This document shows positions 14,887 to 24,666 of a stretch of 32,000 nucleotides of DNA, piece by piece. A model generated the notes under the pieces. That model searched no databases and was not told the DNA's origin. It was given only the letters and a program-made list of their open reading frames with translations. Within the stretch, counting starts at the first letter, position 1, and each line of letters begins with the position of its first letter. Origin of the DNA: Aliivibrio fischeri ES114 (GTDB lineage Bacteria; Pseudomonadota; Gammaproteobacteria; Enterobacterales; Vibrionaceae); assembly GCF_000011805.1 (NCBI RefSeq), contig NC_006841.2, one strand, 5' to 3'. The translations under genes and the position numbers were made by a program.

Positions 14887-15864
14887 ATGACATTAGATGA
14901 AATAGCCAAACTTGCTGGCGTCTCCAAAACCACTGCAAGCTATGTCATCAATGGTAAAGCGCAGAAATATCGCATCAGCGAAAAGACACAATTAAAAGTC
15001 ATGGCAGTGGTTGATGAGCACAATTACCGCCCTGATCATGCCGCATCTGCATTGCGTGCAGGCAGTAGCCGTTCGTTTGGATTAATCATTCCTGATCTTG
15101 AAAACACCAGTTACGCCAAACTTGCTAAACTTTTAGAATTCAATTCAAGAAAAGCCGGTTATCAAATTTTAATTGGATGCTCTGATGATGATCCAGAAAC
15201 AGAAATGAATGTCGCCCACGCACTTATTAGCCGTCGTATTGATGCACTATTCGTTGCAAGTTGCTTACCTAATGGCAGTGATTACTACTTAGGTATTCAA
15301 GAAAAAGGCACACCAATTATTGCCATTGACCGTTCATTAGATGACGAGCATTTTGGTTGTGTGATCAGTGAAGATTTTGATGCGGCTTACGAGTTAACTA
15401 AATCGGTAGTTAATGAGAATGTAAAATCAATTGGCTTAATTGGTGCGTTACCAGAGCTGAATATTTCTCGTGAACGTCAATTAGGATTTGAAGCAAAGGC
15501 CAAAGAGAAAGGTTTAGCTAGCATCATGGGGTATGGCGAACACTTTAATAGTGAATCAGGCAAAGCAATTTTTGAACAATGGATAAAAAATGACACCATT
15601 CCCGATGCGATTATCACAACCTCTTATATTTTGCTTGAAGGGATTTTAGATGTACTCATTGAAAAGCCTGAGTTAATGACCAGAATAAAATTAGGCACCT
15701 TTGGTGATAACCGTCTATTGGATTTCTTACCCATTAAAGTTAACTCTCTACCGCAACAATTTGAGTTAATCGCAGACAGTGCCTTAGCATTGGGGTTGAA
15801 TGCCTCAGCAAAACGTTATCAAGCAGGAATAGAGTTAATTCCTAGGAAGATTGTTATTCGCTAG
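14887..15864 (+). CDS. fruR: Catabolite repressor/activator Cra (FruR), LacI family
   Basis: N-terminal HTH MTLDEIAKLAGVSKTTASYVINGKA..YRISEKT plus a periplasmic-binding-fold domain. Divergent from fruBKA. Confidence 0.92.
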   Translation: MTLDEIAKLAGVSKTTASYVINGKAQKYRISEKTQLKVMAVVDEHNYRPDHAASALRAGSSRSFGLIIPDLENTSYAKLAKLLEFNSRKAGYQILIGCSDDDPETEMNVAHALISRRIDALFVASCLPNGSDYYLGIQEKGTPIIAIDRSLDDEHFGCVISEDFDAAYELTKSVVNENVKSIGLIGALPELNISRERQLGFEAKAKEKGLASIMGYGEHFNSESGKAIFEQWIKNDTIPDAIITTSYILLEGILDVLIEKPELMTRIKLGTFGDNRLLDFLPIKVNSLPQQFELIADSALALGLNASAKRYQAGIELIPRKIVIR

Positions 15865-15908
15865 TCGAAAAATTGGCTGTTGCGGCAGTCAATGTATATT
15901 CTAATTCT

Positions 15909-16547
15909 TTACCAAATACCAACGGGTACACCGTGCTCATCAATATAAGCTTGCGCTTCTTCGCTTAACTCTGGATAAACAAAATCATCAGCAACTTTAT
16001 ACTCTGCGGCTTGTACTTTGAATTGAAGTTCATTATCAAAACATCGATTATTTAAAAAAACAGAAATCATTCCATCAGGAGCTAAACCTAATAAAATATT
16101 ATTCTTATACGGTCTAAGTTTGTTACTTTTACCACACCGTATATCATGATATTCTCGCATTTTATTTCGCATATCGTCGGAAATCCTAATTGCTTTATCG
16201 TAAGTGACGTTGTTCGCCAATGAATGCCAACGAATATAAACTAATCCTGGTAACTCAGAACTTTGAATAACATAACCTGAATGATATCTTTCTCTTCCCT
16301 CCCAAGAGTTTGGATTCTTAGAAAACTTAGTATACTTTGTAACCATCCCTCTCCAGCCCCCTTGTTTTGTTTCACTTGTTATCAATAATATATCAATGTA
16401 TGCGGAGTAATATTTAGGGGCGACCGTAGATACTGTCCATTCATTTAACTGTTTCGATTTAATTTGGCTATTTGTTGAACAAGCAGAAACGAATAAACAA
16501 AAAATAATGAAAAAAGACTTATGAATGTTGCTCACAATACTCACCAA
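15909..16547 (-). CDS. Putative T6SS immunity lipoprotein, copy 4 (intact, most divergent)
   Basis: Lipobox FVSAC. Shares the RWHSLAN..TYDKAIRISDD.R.KMREYHDIRCG core with copy 1. No ATG is available; the start is TTG 16547, GTG 16544 or GTG 16535. Confidence 0.7.
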   Translation of the reverse strand: MVSIVSNIHKSFFIIFCLFVSACSTNSQIKSKQLNEWTVSTVAPKYYSAYIDILLITSETKQGGWRGMVTKYTKFSKNPNSWEGRERYHSGYVIQSSELPGLVYIRWHSLANNVTYDKAIRISDDMRNKMREYHDIRCGKSNKLRPYKNNILLGLAPDGMISVFLNNRCFDNELQFKVQAAEYKVADDFVYPELSEEAQAYIDEHGVPVGIW

Positions 16548-17216
16548 ATACCAACGGGCACACCATGCTCATCAACATAAGATTGTGCTTCTTCGCTTAA
16601 CTCTGGGTAAACAAAATCATCAGCGACTTTATACTCTACTGCTTGTACTTTGAATTGAAGCTCATTATCAAAGCATCCACCATTAAGAAATACAGATATC
16701 ATTCCATCAGGAGCTAAACCTAATAAAATATTATCTTTATATGGGAGTAATAAATCATAATAGCCACAGCGTATATCGTGGTATTCACGCATTTTATTTC
16801 GTATATCTTCTGATACTTTAATCGTTTTATTATATGTTTTCTTGTTCGCTAATGAATGCCAACGAATATAAAAAGAAGCAGGTAATTCGTCACTATTAAT
16901 TGAATACCCTGAATGAAACCGCTCACCACCATCCCAACCTAGAAGGGCTTTCAGATTCCATATGTTGTGTGTTTTCCCTATCATTCCCCTTCATCCAACC
17001 TTTTTCTCCTCTCCACAATCCATAGCTATCCCAATTTAAGAATATATCCCCTACTTGACCTGGTGTGTAACTATTTCAGGGAGGAAGAATAGTCGCACAA
17101 TCGGTCCACTACATCTTAATTGTTTGAGATTTTAACTTTGAGGTTCCAGTTGAACCAGATGGAAACTAATTAAACCAAAAATAATGAGTAGAAATGTCTT
17201 ATGAATGTTGCTCACC
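16541..17216 (-). pseudogene. Immunity lipoprotein paralogue, copy 3 (5' half disrupted by many small insertions)
   Basis: The 3' ORF at 16541-16984 is intact and lacks a signal peptide. Upstream homology to copy 2 continues but out of frame: 259 nt here (16938-17196) against 214 nt in copy 2 (17627-17840). The leader VSNIHKTFLLIIF runs into stop codons. Confidence 0.75.
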
Positions 17217-17220
17217 ATTT

Positions 17221-17868
17221 TCACCAAATACCGACGGGCACACCATGCTCATCAACATAAGATTGTGCTTCTTCGCTTAACTCTGGGTAAACATAATCAT
17301 CAGCGACTTTATACTCTACTGCTTGTACTTTGAATTGAAGCTCATTATCAAAGCATCCACCATTAAGAAATACAGATATCATTCCATCAGGAGCTAAACC
17401 TAATAAAATATTCATCTTTATCATGGGCAGTAATAAATCCATAATAGCCACAGCGTATATCGTGGTCATTCACGCATTTTATTTCGTATATCTTCTGATA
17501 CTTTAATCGTTTTATTCATATGTTTTCTTGTTCGCTAATGGAATGCCAACGCAATATAAAAAGAAGCCAGGTAATTCGTCACTATTAATTGAATACCCTG
17601 AATGAAACCGCTCACCACCATCCCAACCTAGAGGGCTTTCAGATTCCATTGTGGTTTTTCCTATCATCCCCCTCCATCCACCTTGTTTCTTCTCTCCAAC
17701 AATCAATAAGATATCCCCTCTTACTGTGTAATATTTAGGAGAGATAGTCGAAATCGTCCACTCATCTAATTGTTGAGATTTAACTTGAGGTTCAGTTGAA
17801 CAAGAGGAAACTAATAAACAAAAAATAATGAGTAGAAATGTTTTAGCATTAATCATGATTATTACCAA
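17221..17868 (-). pseudogene. Immunity lipoprotein paralogue, copy 2 (nine +1 insertions)
   Basis: Fragments 17512-17868 (signal peptide, lipobox LVSSC, likely ATG at 17856) and 17221-17469 are in the same frame. Between them are nine single-base insertions relative to copy 3. Confidence 0.8.
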
Positions 17869-18479
17869 ATGCCTGTAGGCACGCCATGTTCATCAACATA
17901 AGCTTGTGCTTCTTCGCTTAACTCTGGGTAAACAAAATCATCAGCAACTTTATACTCTACGGCTTGTACTTTGAATTGAAGCTCATTATCAAAGCATCCA
18001 CCATTAAGAAATACAGATATCATTCCATCAGGAGCTAAACCTAATAAAATATTATCTTTATATGGGAGTAATAAATCATAATAGCCACAACGTATATCGT
18101 GATATTCACGCATTTTACGTCGAATATCATCAGAAATCCTAATTGCCTTATCATAAGTAACTTTATTCGCCAGTGAATGCCAACGAATATAGAGTAATCC
18201 TGGTAACTCGGAATCCTCTATAGTATATCCAGAGTGATAACGTTCAGCTCCACTCCAATTTAAAGGACCCAAGGATTCTGTAGTATAATTACTAACTAAA
18301 CCAGTCCATCCTCCACTTTTATTCTCTCCCGTAATAAGTAGGATATCCACAACTGCTGTATAATTTTTAGGTGATATAGTTGAAACAGTCCACTCATCTA
18401 ATTCTTGAGGTTCAGCTTGATATTCAGTGGAACAAGAGGAAACTAATAAACAAAAAATAACTAAAAGATATTTATTCAA
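17862..18479 (-). CDS. Putative cognate T6SS immunity lipoprotein, copy 1 (intact)
   Basis: MNKYLLVIFCLLVSSC has a lipobox. The TTG start overlaps the effector stop (TTGA at 18476-18479), with AGAAAGGA RBS about 8 nt upstream. Located immediately 3' of the lipase gene. Confidence 0.8.
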   Translation of the reverse strand: MNKYLLVIFCLLVSSCSTEYQAEPQELDEWTVSTISPKNYTAVVDILLITGENKSGGWTGLVSNYTTESLGPLNWSGAERYHSGYTIEDSELPGLLYIRWHSLANKVTYDKAIRISDDIRRKMREYHDIRCGYYDLLLPYKDNILLGLAPDGMISVFLNGGCFDNELQFKVQAVEYKVADDFVYPELSEEAQAYVDEHGVPTGIW

Positions 18480-19750
18480 AATGGAAATCCTTTCTGTTTT
18501 TTATGAGGCCAAATTTGTCTTTCACGCTCTCCGTATTGATTAATTTTAGGTTTCATAGTGTACATACCACTATCTAAAGCCCAGTGATCTGAACAATGGA
18601 CATAATGTTTTAAAACATAAGATGATAAAGACTCTGGTACTTCTTTTATAATAGATAAGCCTGAGATATTTTTTGAATGATTATAATTGTCTTCATAAAA
18701 TGAGTAGAGTTCTGCTAACCTTCCTCCAAAAATCAAAGTATTTGTTGAAAGTGGAACATTATTATCCATGGCTATCTTATGCATTAAATTAAATGAAAGA
18801 AATTGAAGATCTGGTGAAATATCCCTTGTCATTGATAATGTTGCTCTATATCGATAATGCTTATTGGTAAGTCTTGTTTTAACAACATTGTTTTGTGAAA
18901 AACAACTTGAAGAAACAACATAAGGTAGAAACTCTTGTTTCATCTCTTCTATTTTTTCTTCTGCTCTATTATTAAAGTTTCTAGTTGCATGCCAATCGTC
19001 CTCACTAATAGTACGTAGATATGGTTTCATAATTAATACGCTATCTTTTGGATCTTTGTAACCACCACCAATATCAGAATGAACACCAAGCAACGCTAAT
19101 TCTTGATGTTCAGGAGCAACCGAATTTAGCGCAAAATTATCTCTACACTCATGATGAGCGGTAAAATGCACCACTTTTTTTGCAATATCTTTAGGTAAAT
19201 ATAAGTTTATACCATGATTATTTTCATCTGTTGTATCGAGTAAATCTTTAATACAACCAATTGCTGCAACTGTATCGTATAACCCAATAAAATTAATACT
19301 TACTTTAGAAGAATCATTTAATTGTAATTTCTCATACACTAAGCCATCCACTTTTTTATGAATTTCATTAGCAAAATGCCTTGCTGTAGCTGCACCTCGA
19401 CTAAAACCAAAAATATCAAAGACCAACTTTATAAGGTGAATGTTAATACCTGATTTATTTAATTCTAAAAGAATATCATCAATAGCTTTCTTTGAAATCG
19501 CAATAACACCACGATCACCAACCCCTAAACCCATATCAGGAAAACGTTGATCTTCTTCAAGAGCTTTAGTGCCAACACCTTCCATATAAATCTTATGCAT
19601 CGTTTTGACATCTGATATATATGATTTAAATAAACGTCCTATATTTGTAATCGAATTATCGTAACTTCCTCGATTTTTTTCTGAAAATTCGAATAATTCT
19701 TCGCATATATTTTGGGTTTCATCAGAAATAAACGTTTCATCTTCGCACAT
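18476..19750 (-). CDS. C-terminal fragment of the effector (DUF2235 alpha/beta-hydrolase lipase domain, from the first ATG)
   Basis: GFSRG nucleophile elbow with Asp and His motifs. The conserved FFDGTGNN strand lies upstream of this ATG, so the fragment is N-terminally incomplete. Confidence 0.6.
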   Translation of the reverse strand: MCEDETFISDETQNICEELFEFSEKNRGSYDNSITNIGRLFKSYISDVKTMHKIYMEGVGTKALEEDQRFPDMGLGVGDRGVIAISKKAIDDILLELNKSGINIHLIKLVFDIFGFSRGAATARHFANEIHKKVDGLVYEKLQLNDSSKVSINFIGLYDTVAAIGCIKDLLDTTDENNHGINLYLPKDIAKKVVHFTAHHECRDNFALNSVAPEHQELALLGVHSDIGGGYKDPKDSVLIMKPYLRTISEDDWHATRNFNNRAEEKIEEMKQEFLPYVVSSSCFSQNNVVKTRLTNKHYRYRATLSMTRDISPDLQFLSFNLMHKIAMDNNVPLSTNTLIFGGRLAELYSFYEDNYNHSKNISGLSIIKEVPESLSSYVLKHYVHCSDHWALDSGMYTMKPKINQYGERERQIWPHKKQKGFPF

Positions 19751-19930
19751 AGCACCAAAATCAGCATTAAACGAGTTGTTTCCTGTTCCATCAAAGAAAA
19801 CACCAAAGCGAATTTCTTGCTTAGTAAAATCCAGAACTTCAATTACATAACTCTCGTTATGAACAAAAGTAACATTCCCTAGCTTCCCTTTATTATGCTC
19901 TTCAAGAAATTGATAATCCGGATTATTACT

Positions 19931-20278
19931 TCATAGATCTCCCAATGTTGCATGTAGGTACTTTTTACTTTGGTTTTGTTCTGGACCACCCAGAGCTTCT
20001 TTTGCAAACTCTGGAACTAGCGATGTTTCTGAATCTAATCGCTTATCTCGGTCTTCAACAACATCTATTAATGTCTGAGTATCTATAGTAACTTTTACAG
20101 GACCACTCGCAATATCTTCAATATGATTTATTCCAGAAGTCAAATTTACAGTCTGAATAGCTCCGGAAGCATCTTCGATAGTGATATCAAAACCTTCATA
20201 AGACTGATTATTTTCATCTCTAAAATCTAATTCAATCCAGTTTTTACTCTTTTCACAGGGAATACAACGATCACTCAT
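19931..20278 (-). CDS. N-terminal fragment of the effector (115 aa, uncharacterised module)
   Basis: ATG overlaps the DUF4123 gene stop (ATGA at 20275-20278). Ends at the in-frame TGA. Contains C-x2-C near the N-terminus. I recognise no family. Confidence 0.6.
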   Translation of the reverse strand: MSDRCIPCEKSKNWIELDFRDENNQSYEGFDITIEDASGAIQTVNLTSGINHIEDIASGPVKVTIDTQTLIDVVEDRDKRLDSETSLVPEFAKEALGGPEQNQSKKYLHATLGDL

Positions 20279-21075
20279 ATCTGGGTTCCTTGTTGTAATT
20301 CAGATCGAGTTACTAAGTTCTCTACCTGCTTAACGGTTTTTATTTGTGCGCTATCTAAATACCAGGCTTCATAGATGTCGTGACTTTGTTGTTTACTATC
20401 TTTAATTAGCATGTTCATTGAATATGCTTCTAATTCTTCATTTTCAAGACGATGCGCTCGCCCCTCTATAAGATGGTTAATTAACTGTGATTGTATATCT
20501 GAATTTTTTTCGTATATCTCTTTCATTAAAGAAGGAAGACGCTGCCACGCTAATCGCTCAGTAATCCATGCATGTCTTTCAACTGAATATGATGAATGGT
20601 GTTTTTCTATCTTCCACCACGGCTCTGATTTATAACTTACTTGAGAGGCGCTATTTTCGTAAGAACACAAAGAACCGACTGACGATATAATTTCTATACA
20701 CTCTGAACTACCAAGAAATAACGATAATTCTTTCTGGTTAAATGATACAAGCATGGCTTCTAAAACAACTCGGTCATAATAACGAAATAAAACTAATTCT
20801 CCATCAAGACCTGCAAACGTTAAACTTTTCCAATGCTGTATATGTGTTTCAATATCATCAGAAAAATAAATACGAAAGCCTGATGGTTTATTGGCAAAAT
20901 AAGCTAAAAACTCTTTAGGTGGATATGGCAATAACCATGGACCAATCTCTTTCTGTGCATCAAACTCAGTATCTAAATACAAAGGAAAAGCATTACCACC
21001 ACCATAATGATAAAAGCGCTCAATAACCTCTTTATCTTCAAGAGGATTAACTACCAAATAGCTCTGTTCATGCAT
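20275..21075 (-). CDS. DUF4123-family T6SS effector adaptor/chaperone (Tap/TEC-like)
   Basis: DUF4123 hallmarks: YLVVNPL..., FPLYLDT, IGPWLLPYP, LFRYYDRVVLEAML. ATG at 21075 with GGAGGGG RBS just after the vgrG TAA; the ORF track's start at 21114 overlaps vgrG. Confidence 0.85.
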   Translation of the reverse strand: MHEQSYLVVNPLEDKEVIERFYHYGGGNAFPLYLDTEFDAQKEIGPWLLPYPPKEFLAYFANKPSGFRIYFSDDIETHIQHWKSLTFAGLDGELVLFRYYDRVVLEAMLVSFNQKELSLFLGSSECIEIISSVGSLCSYENSASQVSYKSEPWWKIEKHHSSYSVERHAWITERLAWQRLPSLMKEIYEKNSDIQSQLINHLIEGRAHRLENEELEAYSMNMLIKDSKQQSHDIYEAWYLDSAQIKTVKQVENLVTRSELQQGTQI

Positions 21076-21079
21076 TCTA

Positions 21080-23116
21080 TTATTCCCCTCCGCAAGGTTT
21101 AACAGCAATGGCATTCAATTTTTGAGCGTTCTCTAATGCATTTTGAGGGGCTTTCATTGGTAAAGATCCCGCCTGCTCAACTTCTTTTCCCATTGGTAAT
21201 ACGGCTGTTTTTCCTGCATAACCACTGCCACTTCCCGCGCTTCCGCCAGAGTTTAGGTTAATTACAGAACCAATAAGATGAACGCCTGCTGGGTCAATTT
21301 TTACAACACTACCGCCGGCTTTAATGGTGATTTCAGTACCTGCTTCTAACACTATTTTTTGACCTGATTTTAAATGCAATTCAGAGCCGATCTCTTCTAG
21401 CTGTTTTTTGCCTACTTTTTTATGTAAAGAGCCATTAACTTGATGATGAGCGTCGCCTTTAATCGTTTCAAACTGACTTCCATTAACGGTGGTATGACGA
21501 TTGTTTTTTATCTCATTAAACTGATTGTTATGTACAATCTTATGTTCATCATTGAAGACTTCTATTGTGTGATCATGTTGGATCTGGCTATCCATGTCTT
21601 TTGCTGCATGAATATAAATTTGCTCTGCGTCTTTTTTATCTTCAAAGCGCAGTTCATTAAAGTTTTCACCACCTAATGAACTTGAGGTTTTAAAGGTACT
21701 GCGTGTTTTATGCTCAGGTAAGGTATAAGGTGGTTTATTGGCACCGTTATAAAGCGCTCCAGTAATAATGGGCTTATCTGGATCACCATGAATGAAACTG
21801 ACAATCACCTCGTGTCCTATCCTAGGTAAAATAAACTGCCCATATTGGTTTCCAGCCCAGCCCTGAGATGTTCGTAACCAACAACTTGTCTTTTCATTTC
21901 CTTGACCATTTCTATCCCAATGAAACTGTACTTTTACGCGACCATGCTCATCACAATATATCTCTTCGCTTTCAGGACCTGTTACGATAGCGGTATCAAC
22001 ATTATGGATCAGTGGCTTAGGTTGAGTAGTAAGCTTAAAAGGAACTATCCATGGCATACAACGAAAACTGGCATTATATTCAGAGCCACCATCAGCCAAT
22101 TCTTCAAGTACCTGTGGCTGACGCCCGCTATGAAACACTTGAGTTAGCAACCAAGTATCGTTCCACTCAGGGTTAGGATGTTCTTGAATAGGTTGGAAAT
22201 ACCCTGCGGTCAATTGTGCGCAGTCGCTCTCGCCGAAAAGTTCAATACTCCTAGCTCTTTGTTGCTCTAGTCGTAATGATGCTTGTTTTGTAGCTTTTTC
22301 TGATGAGGTTTGATTAATTGGGTATTGATAATGTTCTAATGCTAACTCAGAGGCACATTCACCTTGATCATCGTTCTGCATAATCCCTGCAGGAAGTCGT
22401 GTTGGCGTTTCAAAATTAAAGTCTCTTACTGATATTTTACCGACGCTTACTTGCTGCTTTTTCATTAAAGAAGTAATGGTGTTGCCATCTTTCGTCATTC
22501 CATTATCAGCAACAACGCACAAGGGAGGTAATTCGGTATATATTTCAGGTCCATCCGAAATAATCTGTTTAACTCCACTCTCTGTATGTTCAAAATAATA
22601 TACTAAGCCTTCTTCAGACAATAAGCGCTGAACAAACATGGCATCGGATTCACCGTATTGAACACAGTATTCTCTTGGTTCATGAGTATTAAACAGCTCA
22701 ATAGTAAAATGATTACTCAAGATCCCCGCTTGTTGATAAATCTCGGTAATGATGTCTGGTACGGTTTTATTTTGAAATATTTGATAATTGGTTCGATAAT
22801 TGAGAAGCGCAAAAATAGGAACCAGACTTAATCGGTAGGTACTGTTTCGAAAAGAAGTGCTGATTTGCTCTATCGATTCAATAATGCCATGCACATACCT
22901 TGGCGCAAAATCGGGATTATTGTCATGATGCAATGTCAAGCAAGCTGGCAATTGTAGCCATTGAGCTAAATTCAATTCAGGCTCTTCACAAATAAAAGTA
23001 ACATCAAACTGATAGTTTTCTCCCAACGTTTCTTGCCCTGAGAATGAATACACTTGAAGTGGAATATCTATCGTTGCAACGTTAATTTCAAATTGAGCTT
23101 GGTTTGCATCCTGCAT
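21080..23116 (-). CDS. vgrG: T6SS spike protein VgrG (short C-terminal tail, no enzymatic extension)
   Basis: gp27-like N-terminal domain, gp5-like OB segment (GRVKVQFHWDR...CWLRTSQGWAG..YG..ILPRIGHEVIVSF..GDPDKPIITGALYN), beta-helix repeats, Gly/Ser-rich tail. Confidence 0.93.
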   Translation of the reverse strand: MQDANQAQFEINVATIDIPLQVYSFSGQETLGENYQFDVTFICEEPELNLAQWLQLPACLTLHHDNNPDFAPRYVHGIIESIEQISTSFRNSTYRLSLVPIFALLNYRTNYQIFQNKTVPDIITEIYQQAGILSNHFTIELFNTHEPREYCVQYGESDAMFVQRLLSEEGLVYYFEHTESGVKQIISDGPEIYTELPPLCVVADNGMTKDGNTITSLMKKQQVSVGKISVRDFNFETPTRLPAGIMQNDDQGECASELALEHYQYPINQTSSEKATKQASLRLEQQRARSIELFGESDCAQLTAGYFQPIQEHPNPEWNDTWLLTQVFHSGRQPQVLEELADGGSEYNASFRCMPWIVPFKLTTQPKPLIHNVDTAIVTGPESEEIYCDEHGRVKVQFHWDRNGQGNEKTSCWLRTSQGWAGNQYGQFILPRIGHEVIVSFIHGDPDKPIITGALYNGANKPPYTLPEHKTRSTFKTSSSLGGENFNELRFEDKKDAEQIYIHAAKDMDSQIQHDHTIEVFNDEHKIVHNNQFNEIKNNRHTTVNGSQFETIKGDAHHQVNGSLHKKVGKKQLEEIGSELHLKSGQKIVLEAGTEITIKAGGSVVKIDPAGVHLIGSVINLNSGGSAGSGSGYAGKTAVLPMGKEVEQAGSLPMKAPQNALENAQKLNAIAVKPCGGE

Positions 23117-23183
23117 AATGATCCTTCCTAATACACGACTCTACTTTCATCGCGTTAAACACGGTGGCTTAATTAAATAAGCT

Positions 23184-23244
23184 AAAACGCAAAAAGGGAG
23201 AGCCATCATAAACAGCTAGGGGTGCTTATGATATTGACTCTCCC
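23184..23244 (-). terminator. Intrinsic terminator/attenuator hairpin between hcp and vgrG
   Basis: Minus strand reads GGGAGAGTC-aat-ATCATAA-(14-nt loop)-TTATGAT-GGCTCTCCC, followed by TTTTTGCGTTTT. Confidence 0.7.
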
Positions 23245-23258
23245 GAAAATGCGAGCGA

Positions 23259-23777
23259 TTACGCTTTCATTGCTGTACGCCAGTCATCGTTACCTGATGT
23301 ACCTGCGACTTCGTGCGTCCAATCAATGGCACGATATGTCATAAATACATCTTCTAGGTGTGTGAAATGCGCTTGTGATGGGTCTTGACAGTTAGGCATT
23401 GACGCTGTGATATCAACGATAATCGCATCGTGTAGAACTGTTGTGAAATAGTGCTCTTGTGTACCTGTTGCAGAAGTACGGTACCACTTAATCTCAACTT
23501 TAGGCAGTTTCTCACCAGACGTTAATGCGTTATACATTAGTGGTGATGCCTTATCGAATACTTTTGTAATACGTACAGGCTTATGCACACGTTGACCAGT
23601 AGGCTGACCTGATTGAGGATCACGAGGTAATAAAACCTGATGTTCAAATCCTTGAACTAATACTTCGTCTTCATGACCTTCTTGGTAAATGTTACCTACT
23701 GAATCTTCAGTAAATGTACCTGCAGTAATTAGTCCCTGTTTTTCGCCTTCAATGCGCATATAAGCTGGAGTTGGCAT
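23259..23777 (-). CDS. hcp: T6SS tube protein Hcp
   Basis: 172 aa. MPTPAYMRIEGEKQGLITAG...GHEDE.LVQ.F.H....P.DPQSGQPTGQRVHKP... closely parallels Vibrio cholerae Hcp. AAGGAAG RBS. Confidence 0.95.
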   Translation of the reverse strand: MPTPAYMRIEGEKQGLITAGTFTEDSVGNIYQEGHEDEVLVQGFEHQVLLPRDPQSGQPTGQRVHKPVRITKVFDKASPLMYNALTSGEKLPKVEIKWYRTSATGTQEHYFTTVLHDAIIVDITASMPNCQDPSQAHFTHLEDVFMTYRAIDWTHEVAGTSGNDDWRTAMKA

Positions 23778-23825
23778 ACTTTCTTCCTTTTAAACAATAG
23801 TAAATGAATAATTCCCTATCCCTAT

Positions 23826-23841
23826 TGCCAAAGGTGTGCCA
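23826..23841 (-). promoter_or_regulatory. Sigma-54 (-24/-12) type promoter for hcp
   Basis: Minus strand reads TGGCAC-ACCTT-TGGCA against consensus TGGCAC-N5-TTGCW. GG and GC are correctly spaced. The -12 element is about 50 nt upstream of the hcp ATG. Confidence 0.6.
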
Positions 23842-24015
23842 ATTTTTTAACCGTTAAATATCAACAAGATAAAATGATAAAAAACATAAATTATAAAATA
23901 AAAGTTTGAAAAACAATCAAAGATTCTTGAAAATCAATCAAACTAATATCCGTGCCAAATTAAACTATCTTTCGTACTGAATCACGATTTTCCGATTCAG
24001 TTATCAAAAAAGCCA

Positions 24016-24666
24016 TTAATTAAGTAAATGAGCATAAAGGTGACTCACTTTTTCACTGCATTTAGGATTCGCTTCCATTCTTTTATAATGTGCGATGGTT
24101 TTATGTAAATACTCTTGGTGCTCGGTATTACTCAAGTTCCACATTTCAGAACCTATGCAATGTAATGGCTGTGTTGCTCGGTTGCTCACATGCAATACTT
24201 CATAAAATCGTTGGTTTTCTTTTACAAGCGTTTCAGAGATCAAACCAAAGCCCATTTCAATTAATTCTCGTCTTACCCTGTAATTATGCAAAACTGGGCA
24301 AAGAATAAACTCTAAATCAGCATCTTTATTATACTGATAAATAGACCGTACTAACTCAATAAGTAAATCTCCACCAACACCAGCAATAATAATTAAATTT
24401 TTAGAATCATTAACTAATGGAAGTTGCGCCACATCCATACAATGAACCTGCCATTGGGGTTGAATATCAGCGGCGTATTTATTAAGTCGAGTTTCTAGCT
24501 CTACCATTAAGCTATCTACCACATCCACAAAATGAATTACGCTTTTGGGTTGTGAGGCTAATAAAGCCATACCTAACTGGCCATGGTCACAACAACAGTC
24601 CCAAATATGATCATAATGGGTGGTTACTTTATTTCTGATGGTATCTAAACGAGAGCTTAATTTCAT
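24016..24666 (-). CDS. TrmK-like SAM-dependent tRNA (adenine-N1) methyltransferase family protein
   Basis: N-terminal MKLSSRLDTI...IWDCCCDHGQLG resembles the TrmK/DUF633 pattern (MKLS.RL......D.G.DH..L). Length of about 216 aa fits the family. Confidence 0.6.
   Translation of the reverse strand: MKLSSRLDTIRNKVTTHYDHIWDCCCDHGQLGMALLASQPKSVIHFVDVVDSLMVELETRLNKYAADIQPQWQVHCMDVAQLPLVNDSKNLIIIAGVGGDLLIELVRSIYQYNKDADLEFILCPVLHNYRVRRELIEMGFGLISETLVKENQRFYEVLHVSNRATQPLHCIGSEMWNLSNTEHQEYLHKTIAHYKRMEANPKCSEKVSHLYAHLLN

Follow-up and report, generated by a model that had tools for sequence, protein, structure and literature searches.

A premature TGA splits a Tle1-like lipase effector gene in a type VI secretion auxiliary cluster of Aliivibrio fischeri ES114

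The nearest solved relative of the effector considered here is EAEC Tle1 (6SJL/6SKI, bound to the VgrG spike), which matches it by sequence over residues 137-448 (E = 3e-38) and by fold (E = 1e-23). The two proteins have in common the FFDGTGNN strand, the GFSRG nucleophile elbow and aligned Asp and His residues. Nothing in EAEC Tle1 corresponds to residues 1-136 of the A. fischeri ES114 protein, and EAEC Tle1 loads onto VgrG directly, with no DUF4123 adaptor involved; the ES114 gene, by contrast, is interrupted by a premature stop. The same module as in ES114 was described for Tle1(AH)-Tli1/Tli2 of Aeromonas hydrophila NJ-35 (PMC7245790), with a DUF4123 gene, a DUF2235 lipase carrying GxSxG and one to three downstream DUF2931 immunity genes. 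The NJ-35 effector is intact and experimentally active (PMC7245790), whereas the ES114 copy is cut short at codon 116 and is followed by four DUF2931 copies, of which two are degraded. Auxiliary cluster 1 of Vibrio cholerae (hcp-vgrG1-tap1-tseL-tsiV1; PMC4557670, PMC5361080) shows the same gene order as the ES114 cluster, and both carry a downstream array of extra divergent immunity genes. Unlike in V. cholerae, where a displacement model has been put forward, no effector 3'-end remnants were found between the ES114 immunity copies, and in ES114 the resident effector itself is broken. No V. fischeri T6SS effector had been characterised as of PMC9972734. ES114 is without the T6SS2 island but has kept its auxiliary clusters, and it is non-lethal, a known non-killer (PMC6130350).

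We analysed a window of 32,000 nucleotides from chromosome II of A. fischeri (Vibrio fischeri) ES114, a squid symbiont. The cluster within it is of the T6SS auxiliary type (hcp-vgrG-DUF4123-effector-DUF2931), with hcp, vgrG and the DUF4123 gene linked upstream of the effector and DUF2931 lipoprotein genes downstream. It lies between TrmK-like and LacI-family genes, and synteny is kept in other strains. All features listed below are on the minus strand.

23826-23841, minus strand: sigma-54-type promoter-like site TGGCACacctttGGCA (GG-N10-GC), 49 nt upstream of hcp; pattern search with one mismatch, also read directly
23259-23777, minus strand: hcp, 172 aa, intact; PF05638 on orthologous genes, 99.4-100% aa identity to orthologues
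21080-23116, minus strand: vgrG, 678 aa, intact; PF05954, PF04717 and PF22178, 99.1-99.4% aa identity to orthologues
20275-21114, minus strand: DUF4123 adaptor/chaperone gene, 279 aa as listed; PF13503, E = 2e-24
19934-20278, minus strand: effector codons 1-115 (VF_A0951), N-terminal beta-rich domain; exact match to AAW88021.1
19931-19933, minus strand: premature TGA, codon 116; TGG/Trp in all orthologues
19751-19930, minus strand: 60 sense codons without a start, encoding the first two core beta-strands and FFDGTGNN (19775-19798)
18476-19750, minus strand: effector codons 177-600 (VF_A0950, 424 aa), rest of the Tle1-like alpha/beta-hydrolase; PF09994
17862-18479, minus strand: immunity gene 1, DUF2931 lipoprotein, 205 aa, intact, presumed cognate; PF11153, E = 1.6e-47
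17221-17868, minus strand: immunity copy 2, DUF2931 pseudogene with several frameshifts; profile matches and three-frame translation
16541-17230 (upper boundary approximate), minus strand: immunity copy 3, DUF2931 pseudogene with disrupted N-terminal part; profile match and translation
15909-16547, minus strand: immunity copy 4, DUF2931, 212 aa, intact, divergent 'orphan'; PF11153, E = 2.7e-48

Sigma-54 sites have been reported upstream of V. fischeri hcp genes (PMC9972734), and the site at 23826-23841 may act as such a promoter here. The DUF4123 gene probably starts at ATG 21075, giving 266 aa, rather than at 21114; anti-SD pairing was -10.0 kcal/mol at 21075 versus -2.9 at 21114, and the orthologues are annotated as 266 aa. 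The TGA stop of this gene overlaps the effector ATG (ATGA), and the effector TGA stop overlaps the TTG start of immunity gene 1.

The effector is by descent a Tle1-like (DUF2235, PF09994) member, with a PF09994 match of 61.4 bits against a gathering cut-off of 27 (E = 1.2e-16), and NCBI names its orthologues Tle1-like. Its reading frame is not one uninterrupted ORF. Translation of 18476-20278 gave 601 codons with a single internal stop, at codon 116, confirming the initial annotation of two same-frame ORFs parted only by TGA. The first (19931-20278, 115 aa) ends in that TGA at 19931-19933, and the lower coordinates of the two ORFs differ by 1455 nt (19931 minus 18476), or 485 x 3. Their products are identical to annotated ES114 proteins, the 424-aa one to VF_A0950 and the 115-aa one to VF_A0951. 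The 60 codons at 19751-19930 read SNNPDYQ...FFDGTGNNSFNADFGA and contain no ATG, GTG or TTG, so that the first possible start is 19750, yet they encode FFDGTGNN (codons 161-168). This claim too held in the ORF listing and translation, as did that of intact downstream motifs: GFSRG (Ser293, 19400-19402), LYDTVAA (Asp335, 19274-19276) and HSDIGGGY (His400, 19079-19081). Ser293, Asp335 and His400 align opposite S197, D245 and H310 of 6SJL chain D. We take the latter three to be the catalytic residues of EAEC Tle1 (Flaugnatti et al. 2016). Chance is not at issue in the split itself, since it is a deterministic reading of the sequence.

The position of the stop was assessed on an AlphaFold2 model of a 90%-identical orthologue and on an alignment of 46 sequences. 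In the model, residues 5-110 were predicted with a pLDDT of about 77-88, codon 116 falls within a low-confidence interdomain segment (111-136), and strands 142-150 and 154-163 form the first two core strands. In the alignment, G159, F161, F162, D163, G164 and T165 are invariant, and the TGA site lies inside a conserved T-x-G-D-[LF]-W motif in which T111 is invariant and G113 and D114 are conserved in at least 90%. The 115-aa domain matched no Pfam or NCBIfam family, and a Foldseek search with the whole model returned just weak Ig-like/CnaB-type matches for the N-terminal domain. Residues 1-115 had been proposed as a loading domain. Such a role may be envisaged for them, but it is the catalytic domain of P. 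aeruginosa Tle1 that the DUF4123 adaptor and VgrG bind (PMC13133936). Proteins of 53 aa that co-clustered with VF_A0950 were unrelated HTH-like sequences.

Every orthologue examined is a single uninterrupted gene of 593-601 codons. These comprised 21 other distinct A. fischeri alleles, all of 600 aa and collinear with the ES114 effector, and genes from A. logei, A. sifiae, an Aliivibrio sp., a Vibrionaceae MAG and a Photobacterium MAG. Tryptophan occupies column 116 in the 12 full-length proteins aligned (alignment A1), and codon 116 is TGG in 11 of 11 DNA loci from six species-level groups (L002-L006, L090 and L010-L014), none with an internal stop. The TGG expected at this site by the initial annotation was thus found throughout, and the two-gene arrangement that would have spoken against a lesion was seen in no orthologue. 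Apart from the TGA, the ES114 effector has no further lesion, and it shows no excess of private residues (4, versus 0-4 in intact alleles). At the nucleotide level it is 97.7% identical to the nearest intact allele, which is similar to the 97.3-99.6% of the neighbouring genes.

Proteins of 424 aa are also annotated in other strains (P0012, P0122, P0123, P0137, P0139 and others), as if truncation were recurrent. This was rejected, as each entry is identical to the last 424 residues of an intact 600-aa RefSeq protein encoded on its own contig. P0123, for example, is the C-terminus of P0148 on the same contig, and the supposed start of MUL10829.1 is an ATA codon within a 600-codon ORF that is open throughout. 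The 424-aa entries are start miscalls, annotation artefacts on intact genes, and the 424-aa fragment model appears to have spread wrong start sites into the GenBank annotations of other strains' intact genes.

The downstream array consists of four DUF2931 copies, two intact and two frameshifted, as in an orphan or duplicated immunity array. Immunity gene 1 shares 99.5% aa identity with the partner of the nearest intact effector allele, has its own SD (-5.4 kcal/mol) and carries a lipobox-like LLVSSC read in the sequence. Two ORF fragments of copy 2 match DUF2931 profile positions 1-82 and 111-182, with the middle part shifted through other frames. The 147-aa ORF of copy 3 matches positions 54-182 only, and its signal-peptide part lies in another frame and is stop-interrupted. 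Copy 4 is 71% identical to copy 1. In a search for an internal promoter for the immunity genes, sigma-70-like hits were at chance level (33 found versus 35 expected). The best minus-strand sigma-70-like hit, at 18995-18968, is an unproven candidate.

Taken as a whole, the locus is very probably a T6SS auxiliary cluster whose 600-codon Tle1-like lipase effector gene has been inactivated by a TGG to TGA change at Trp116, with the catalytic part not made in meaningful amounts and the cognate immunity gene kept. Of the explanations put forward in the initial annotation, a recent nonsense mutation is therefore the one supported, by the Trp/TGG in all orthologues, the lack of any other lesion and the unremarkable number of private substitutions. 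A single G-to-A transition would account for the change in the conserved codon. Translation would begin normally at 20278 and end after 115 residues, and the N-terminal domain alone would be released. Little of the catalytic part would be made, because no start is available for 60 codons and ATG 19750 has no usable Shine-Dalgarno sequence. Anti-SD pairing at this ATG is weak (-2.8 kcal/mol) and ends 2 nt from it, compared with -5.4 to -6.4 kcal/mol at the starts of hcp, vgrG, VF_A0951 and immunity gene 1 (VF_A0951 and immunity gene 1 each at -5.4). A 424-aa product, were any made, would start only beyond the invariant FFDGTGN and the first two core strands, and from structure and conservation we would expect its lipase activity to be lost. 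Toxin activity is thus presumably absent in ES114. The cognate immunity gene would remain intact with its own ribosome-binding site, and ES114 would be expected to retain immunity. As the sole defect in the effector gene, the lesion looks recent and lineage-specific. The lack of secondary decay gives no date for the inactivation, but it fits a recent event and is no argument against the gene being inactive.

Of the three stop codons, UGA is the one most prone to leak in enterobacteria, and tRNA-Trp is its near-cognate reader. Misreading by tRNA-Trp might therefore yield a trickle of wild-type lipase, leaving the toxin down-tuned and not dead, which we consider unlikely. If true, the trickle could be enough to sustain selection on the highly conserved cognate immunity gene and on the lesion-free rest of the ORF, and selection might even have favoured the lesion once T6SS2 and its activator had been lost.

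It is very unlikely that the UGA is subject to programmed recoding, whether as selenocysteine or by efficient readthrough, with the full-length effector as the normal product. Readthrough by tRNA-Trp would give back exactly the ancestral residue, and the remainder of the gene is free of further lesions, but no orthologue has TGA or Cys at codon 116; all have TGG. The 85 nt around and after the stop had a minimum free energy of -11.3 kcal/mol, while shuffled sequences averaged -13.7 (z = +0.93), and 170 of 200 shuffles folded at least as well. No SECIS-like hairpin was found near the UGA, and a search of positions 15000-24500 for Rfam elements gave no match at E <= 1. TGA also ends neighbouring genes at their expected lengths, being the ordinary stop of the adjacent DUF4123 gene and of the effector itself. 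With no stem-loop, no Rfam match and no conservation of the TGA, the suggestion of stop-codon readthrough found no support.

Still less probable is a functional split, in which the 115-aa domain and a separately initiated 424-aa lipase act as two polypeptides. In its favour, each of the two ORFs carries a protein annotation, several other A. fischeri genomes also list 424-aa products, and the stop falls within the predicted flexible interdomain segment. The entries from other genomes, however, are the start miscalls described above, ATG 19750 in ES114 is not preceded by a proper SD, the 424-aa product would be without strands 142-150 and 154-163 and the FFDGTGN motif, and the two-gene arrangement occurs in no orthologue.

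There is next to no likelihood that a sequencing or assembly error conceals an intact TGG in ES114: the original release was error-rich, with 75 of 82 suspect split genes proving to be artefacts (PMC2330054), but this site was among the 82 targets resequenced and was left unchanged, and the same TGA is present in independent Illumina-era assemblies (SRR15312040, SRR3826946, SRR3826893 and GCA_001029395.1). For target 164 of Mandel et al. 2008, the primers lie at 20041-20064 and 19567-19590, one on each side of the TGA, and that study (PMC2330054) lists target 164 neither in its table of corrections nor in its file of base changes. An exact copy of the 115-aa product occurs in 96 blocks of the indexed sequence collection. 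The TGA at 19931-19933 is therefore real and reproducible in independent sequence data, and the error proposed as one explanation is excluded. The TGA-bearing loci (L001, L007, L008 and L009) are identical or one unrelated SNP apart. Found only in ES114-identical assemblies, the TGA allele is compatible with an origin in the wild or after isolation.

The nonsense mutation has counterparts in the same genome. In the ES114-specific pseudogenes of Mandel, Stabb and Ruby 2008, such as the amber-nonsense cases umuC and VF_A0270, a single MJ11 gene is likewise represented by two adjacent ES114 ORFs, a split that targeted resequencing showed to be real. Target 164 is not among the five pseudogenes named there, and both fragments are still annotated as hypothetical proteins. 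The searchable literature yielded no paper explicitly calling this locus a pseudogene, and nothing on VF_A0950/VF_A0951, the LCYF01 assembly or the SRR runs.

The initial annotation had also suggested that the strain would be an immune non-killer. This is plausible, but ES114 is already a non-killer because it lacks T6SS2 (PMC6130350), and it is still killed by T6SS2-positive strains. Selection on the effector may have been relaxed because ES114 lacks T6SS2, and the lesion fits the weapon decay expected after loss of that island. Competition studies on the V. fischeri T6SS use ES114 as reference strain and standard prey, and a null allele of the sole effector of this cluster alongside an intact immunity gene would aid the interpretation of killing and immunity assays. 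It also bears on whether the T6SS1 cluster, which has no hcp or vgrG, borrows this auxiliary cluster. The value of the finding is practical and lies mainly in annotation: this is a real but ordinary strain-specific pseudogene, and VF_A0950 and VF_A0951 should be annotated as one.

The effector gene of Aliivibrio (Vibrio) fischeri ES114 lies in a run of minus-strand genes whose order is that of a T6SS auxiliary cluster. The arrangement matches both the DUF4123-Tle1-DUF2931 module of Aeromonas hydrophila (PMC7245790) and auxiliary cluster 1 of V. cholerae (PMC4557670).

23259-23777, minus strand: hcp
21080-23116, minus strand: vgrG
20275-21114 as listed, minus strand: DUF4123 adaptor gene
18476-20278, minus strand: split Tle1-like effector (PF09994)
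17862-18479, minus strand: immunity gene 1, intact and with its own Shine-Dalgarno sequence
15909-18479, minus strand: four tandem DUF2931 paralogues, immunity gene 1 among them

In other strains the cluster is flanked by genes for a TrmK-like methyltransferase and a LacI-family regulator, and its chromosomal position is unchanged relative to ES114. A sigma-54-type -24/-12 element, TGGCAC-N5-TGGCA (GG-N10-GC), was located 49 nt upstream of hcp (23826-23841, minus strand), in agreement with the sigma-54-type sites reported for V. fischeri hcp genes (PMC9972734). The listed start of the DUF4123 gene, 21114, creates a 35-nt overlap with vgrG. ATG 21075 is probably the true start, with a strong GGAGG Shine-Dalgarno sequence (-10.0 kcal/mol, versus -2.9 kcal/mol at 21114) and agreement with the 266-aa calls in other strains. 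The G+C content of the effector-immunity module (window 18000-21000) is 0.32-0.35 and that of the flanking genes 0.38-0.43; the low value fits horizontally exchanged effector modules.

Translated as one frame, 18476-20278 spans 601 codons and is interrupted only once, by a stop at codon 116. This TGA (19931-19933, minus strand) terminates a 115-aa ORF (19931-20278) that is in frame with a 424-aa ORF (18476-19750) on the same strand; the products are exact matches to VF_A0951 and VF_A0950 of chromosome II, respectively. ATG, GTG and TTG are all absent from the 60 codons that follow directly (19751-19930), which include FFDGTGNN (codons 161-168, 19775-19798), while the GFSRG, LYDTVAA and HSDIGGGY motifs downstream are undamaged. 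Each of these features had been described in the initial annotation and was recovered here. The effector matched PF09994, the Tle1-like catalytic domain, at 61 bits (cut-off 27).

The initial annotation offered a nonsense mutation of TGG, a sequencing error or stop-codon readthrough as explanations. Comparison with orthologues supports the first. A database search with the repaired effector sequence returned full-length homologues of 593-600 aa from A. fischeri, A. sifiae, A. logei, Aliivibrio sp. and Photobacterium, with Trp at alignment column 116 in 12/12 full-length sequences, and 21 further distinct A. fischeri 600-aa alleles were collinear with the ES114 sequence. At the DNA level, codon 116 was the expected TGG in 11/11 loci, six from A. 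fischeri, namely L002-L006 and L090, and five from other species, namely L010-L014; each is an uninterrupted ORF. Only ES114 has TGA, which differs from TGG by one G-to-A transition.

We also considered whether 424-aa proteins of other A. fischeri strains, which begin exactly where VF_A0950 begins, were independent truncations. This was rejected, as each has the same sequence as the last 424 residues of a 600-aa RefSeq protein on its own contig (424-aa/600-aa pairs P0123/P0148, P0137/P0138, P0139/P0136 and P0144/P0002 of the homologue search). The 424-aa GenBank protein of GCA_009728075.1 'starts' at an ATA codon within an open 600-codon frame; in L090, an intact A. fischeri locus, the effector occupies 1001-2803 and codon 177 lies at 1529-1531. 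These 424-aa calls have misplaced starts; their apparent model was the ES114 fragment, from which the wrong start seems to have propagated.

A sequencing error does not account for the stop; the premature TGA is a true feature of ES114. In the assembly collection, 96 blocks index precisely this 115-aa product, and contigs from SRR15312040, SRR3826946, SRR3826893 and GCA_001029395.1 carry an effector that is identical or differs by one unrelated SNP. Moreover, 82 targets in ES114, each selected because one MJ11 gene matched two neighbouring ORFs there, were resequenced by Mandel, Stabb and Ruby (2008; PMC2330054). The primers for their target 164 map to 20041-20064 and 19567-19590, giving a 498-bp amplicon that includes the TGA. 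Target 164 appears neither in their table of 75 corrected targets nor in the base-change supplement, nor among the five pseudogenes they named, which indicates that the sequence was confirmed and the two ORFs simply left annotated.

Readthrough fared no better: RNA around and 3' of the stop showed no folding advantage over shuffled sequence (z = +0.93), Rfam gave no family matches within 15000-24500, and TGG alone is conserved at the site. TGA is also the ordinary stop of the adjacent DUF4123 gene and of the effector itself. Low-level UGA misreading by tRNA-Trp, which would restore wild-type toxin, is an unlikely residual possibility. The first in-frame start after the TGA, ATG 19750, has anti-Shine-Dalgarno pairing of -2.8 kcal/mol ending 2 nt from the ATG; pairing at the hcp, vgrG, VF_A0951 and immunity gene 1 starts is -5.4 to -6.4. 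Any product starting at Met177 would be missing the FFDGTGN motif, which is invariant across a 46-sequence alignment.

Structure was assessed with an AlphaFold2 model of the 90%-identical intact orthologue P0001 (mean pLDDT 75.7). The model comprises a beta-rich N-terminal domain (residues 5-110, pLDDT about 77-88), a low-confidence segment holding codon 116 (residues 111-136) and a hydrolase core beginning with strand 142-150; a Met177-start product would, on this model, lack strands 142-150 and 154-163. The nearest solved structure is EAEC Tle1 (6SJL/6SKI; sequence E = 3e-38 over residues 137-448, fold E = 1e-23), whose positions 197, 245 and 310 align to Ser293, Asp335 and His400 but which has no counterpart of residues 1-136. 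The stop sits within a motif conserved in distant homologues (residues 111-120, about 19919-19948; T111 invariant, G113, D114 and P120 at least 90%). Its pLDDT is below 50, and it may bind a partner and fold in doing so. Relatives carry a PAAR domain at the position equivalent to residues 1-115, which favours a delivery role for these residues. The label 'loading domain' is unproven, and the binding of the P. aeruginosa Tle1 catalytic domain by adaptor and VgrG (PMC13133936) counts against it.

The lesion appears to be recent. From the nearest intact allele, L002 (GCA_009727975.1), ES114 is separated by 42 differences in 1803 nt (96.8% aa identity), a divergence similar to that of neighbouring genes; private residues number four in ES114 (I269, F493, M504, G518), compared with 0-4 in intact alleles (n=21), and no second lesion was seen in the gene. 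The TGA allele was found only in ES114-identical assemblies, so it may have arisen either before or after isolation of the strain. Residues 177-286 (about 19421-19750) are hypervariable among A. fischeri alleles (54-99% identity, versus 89-100% elsewhere in the effector) and apparently recombining. Immunity-gene identity tracks this region in three strains (99.5% in L002, 78.5% in L003, 74.8% in L090), suggesting that it may determine immunity specificity.

At the protein level, immunity gene 1 is 99.5% identical to the immunity gene adjoining the closest intact allele of the effector. Both copy 2 and copy 3 carry frameshifts, several compensating ones in copy 2, and copy 3 lacks its N-terminal part; copy 4 is intact yet divergent (71% identity to copy 1). 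Other strains have one or two DUF2931 copies plus fragments. GCA_001029395.1 matches the window exactly from vgrG up to and including the effector but is different inside the array (L007:4800-6348 versus window 17100-18100): copy 1 has a 5-bp insertion at about 18061, copy 2 lacks seven single bases, and a stretch below 17230 is divergent. These differences could be true strain variation, repeat mis-assembly or residual reference-array errors; the Illumina contigs L001, L008 and L009 all stop at 18431, the array edge.

VF_A0951/VF_A0950 is therefore the pseudogene of a Tle1-like T6SS lipase effector, the product of a genuine and recent nonsense mutation that is specific to ES114, and its immunity gene has been kept. 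Such events are well known, and the site was flagged and resequenced in 2008; our literature search found no paper naming the locus a pseudogene or tying it to T6SS. ES114 lacks the T6SS2 genomic island and is non-lethal, while keeping auxiliary clusters (PMC6130350). VasH, which activates hcp transcription, is placed in the T6SS2 cluster (PMC9972734), so the auxiliary cluster may be transcriptionally silent in ES114; presumably the operon has low expression there and selection on the effector is relaxed. The proposal that ES114 is an immune non-killer is reasonable, but the non-killer state does not stem from the TGA alone, and T6SS2-positive strains still kill ES114. The main value of the finding lies in correcting the annotation and in the reading of ES114 as prey in competition assays.
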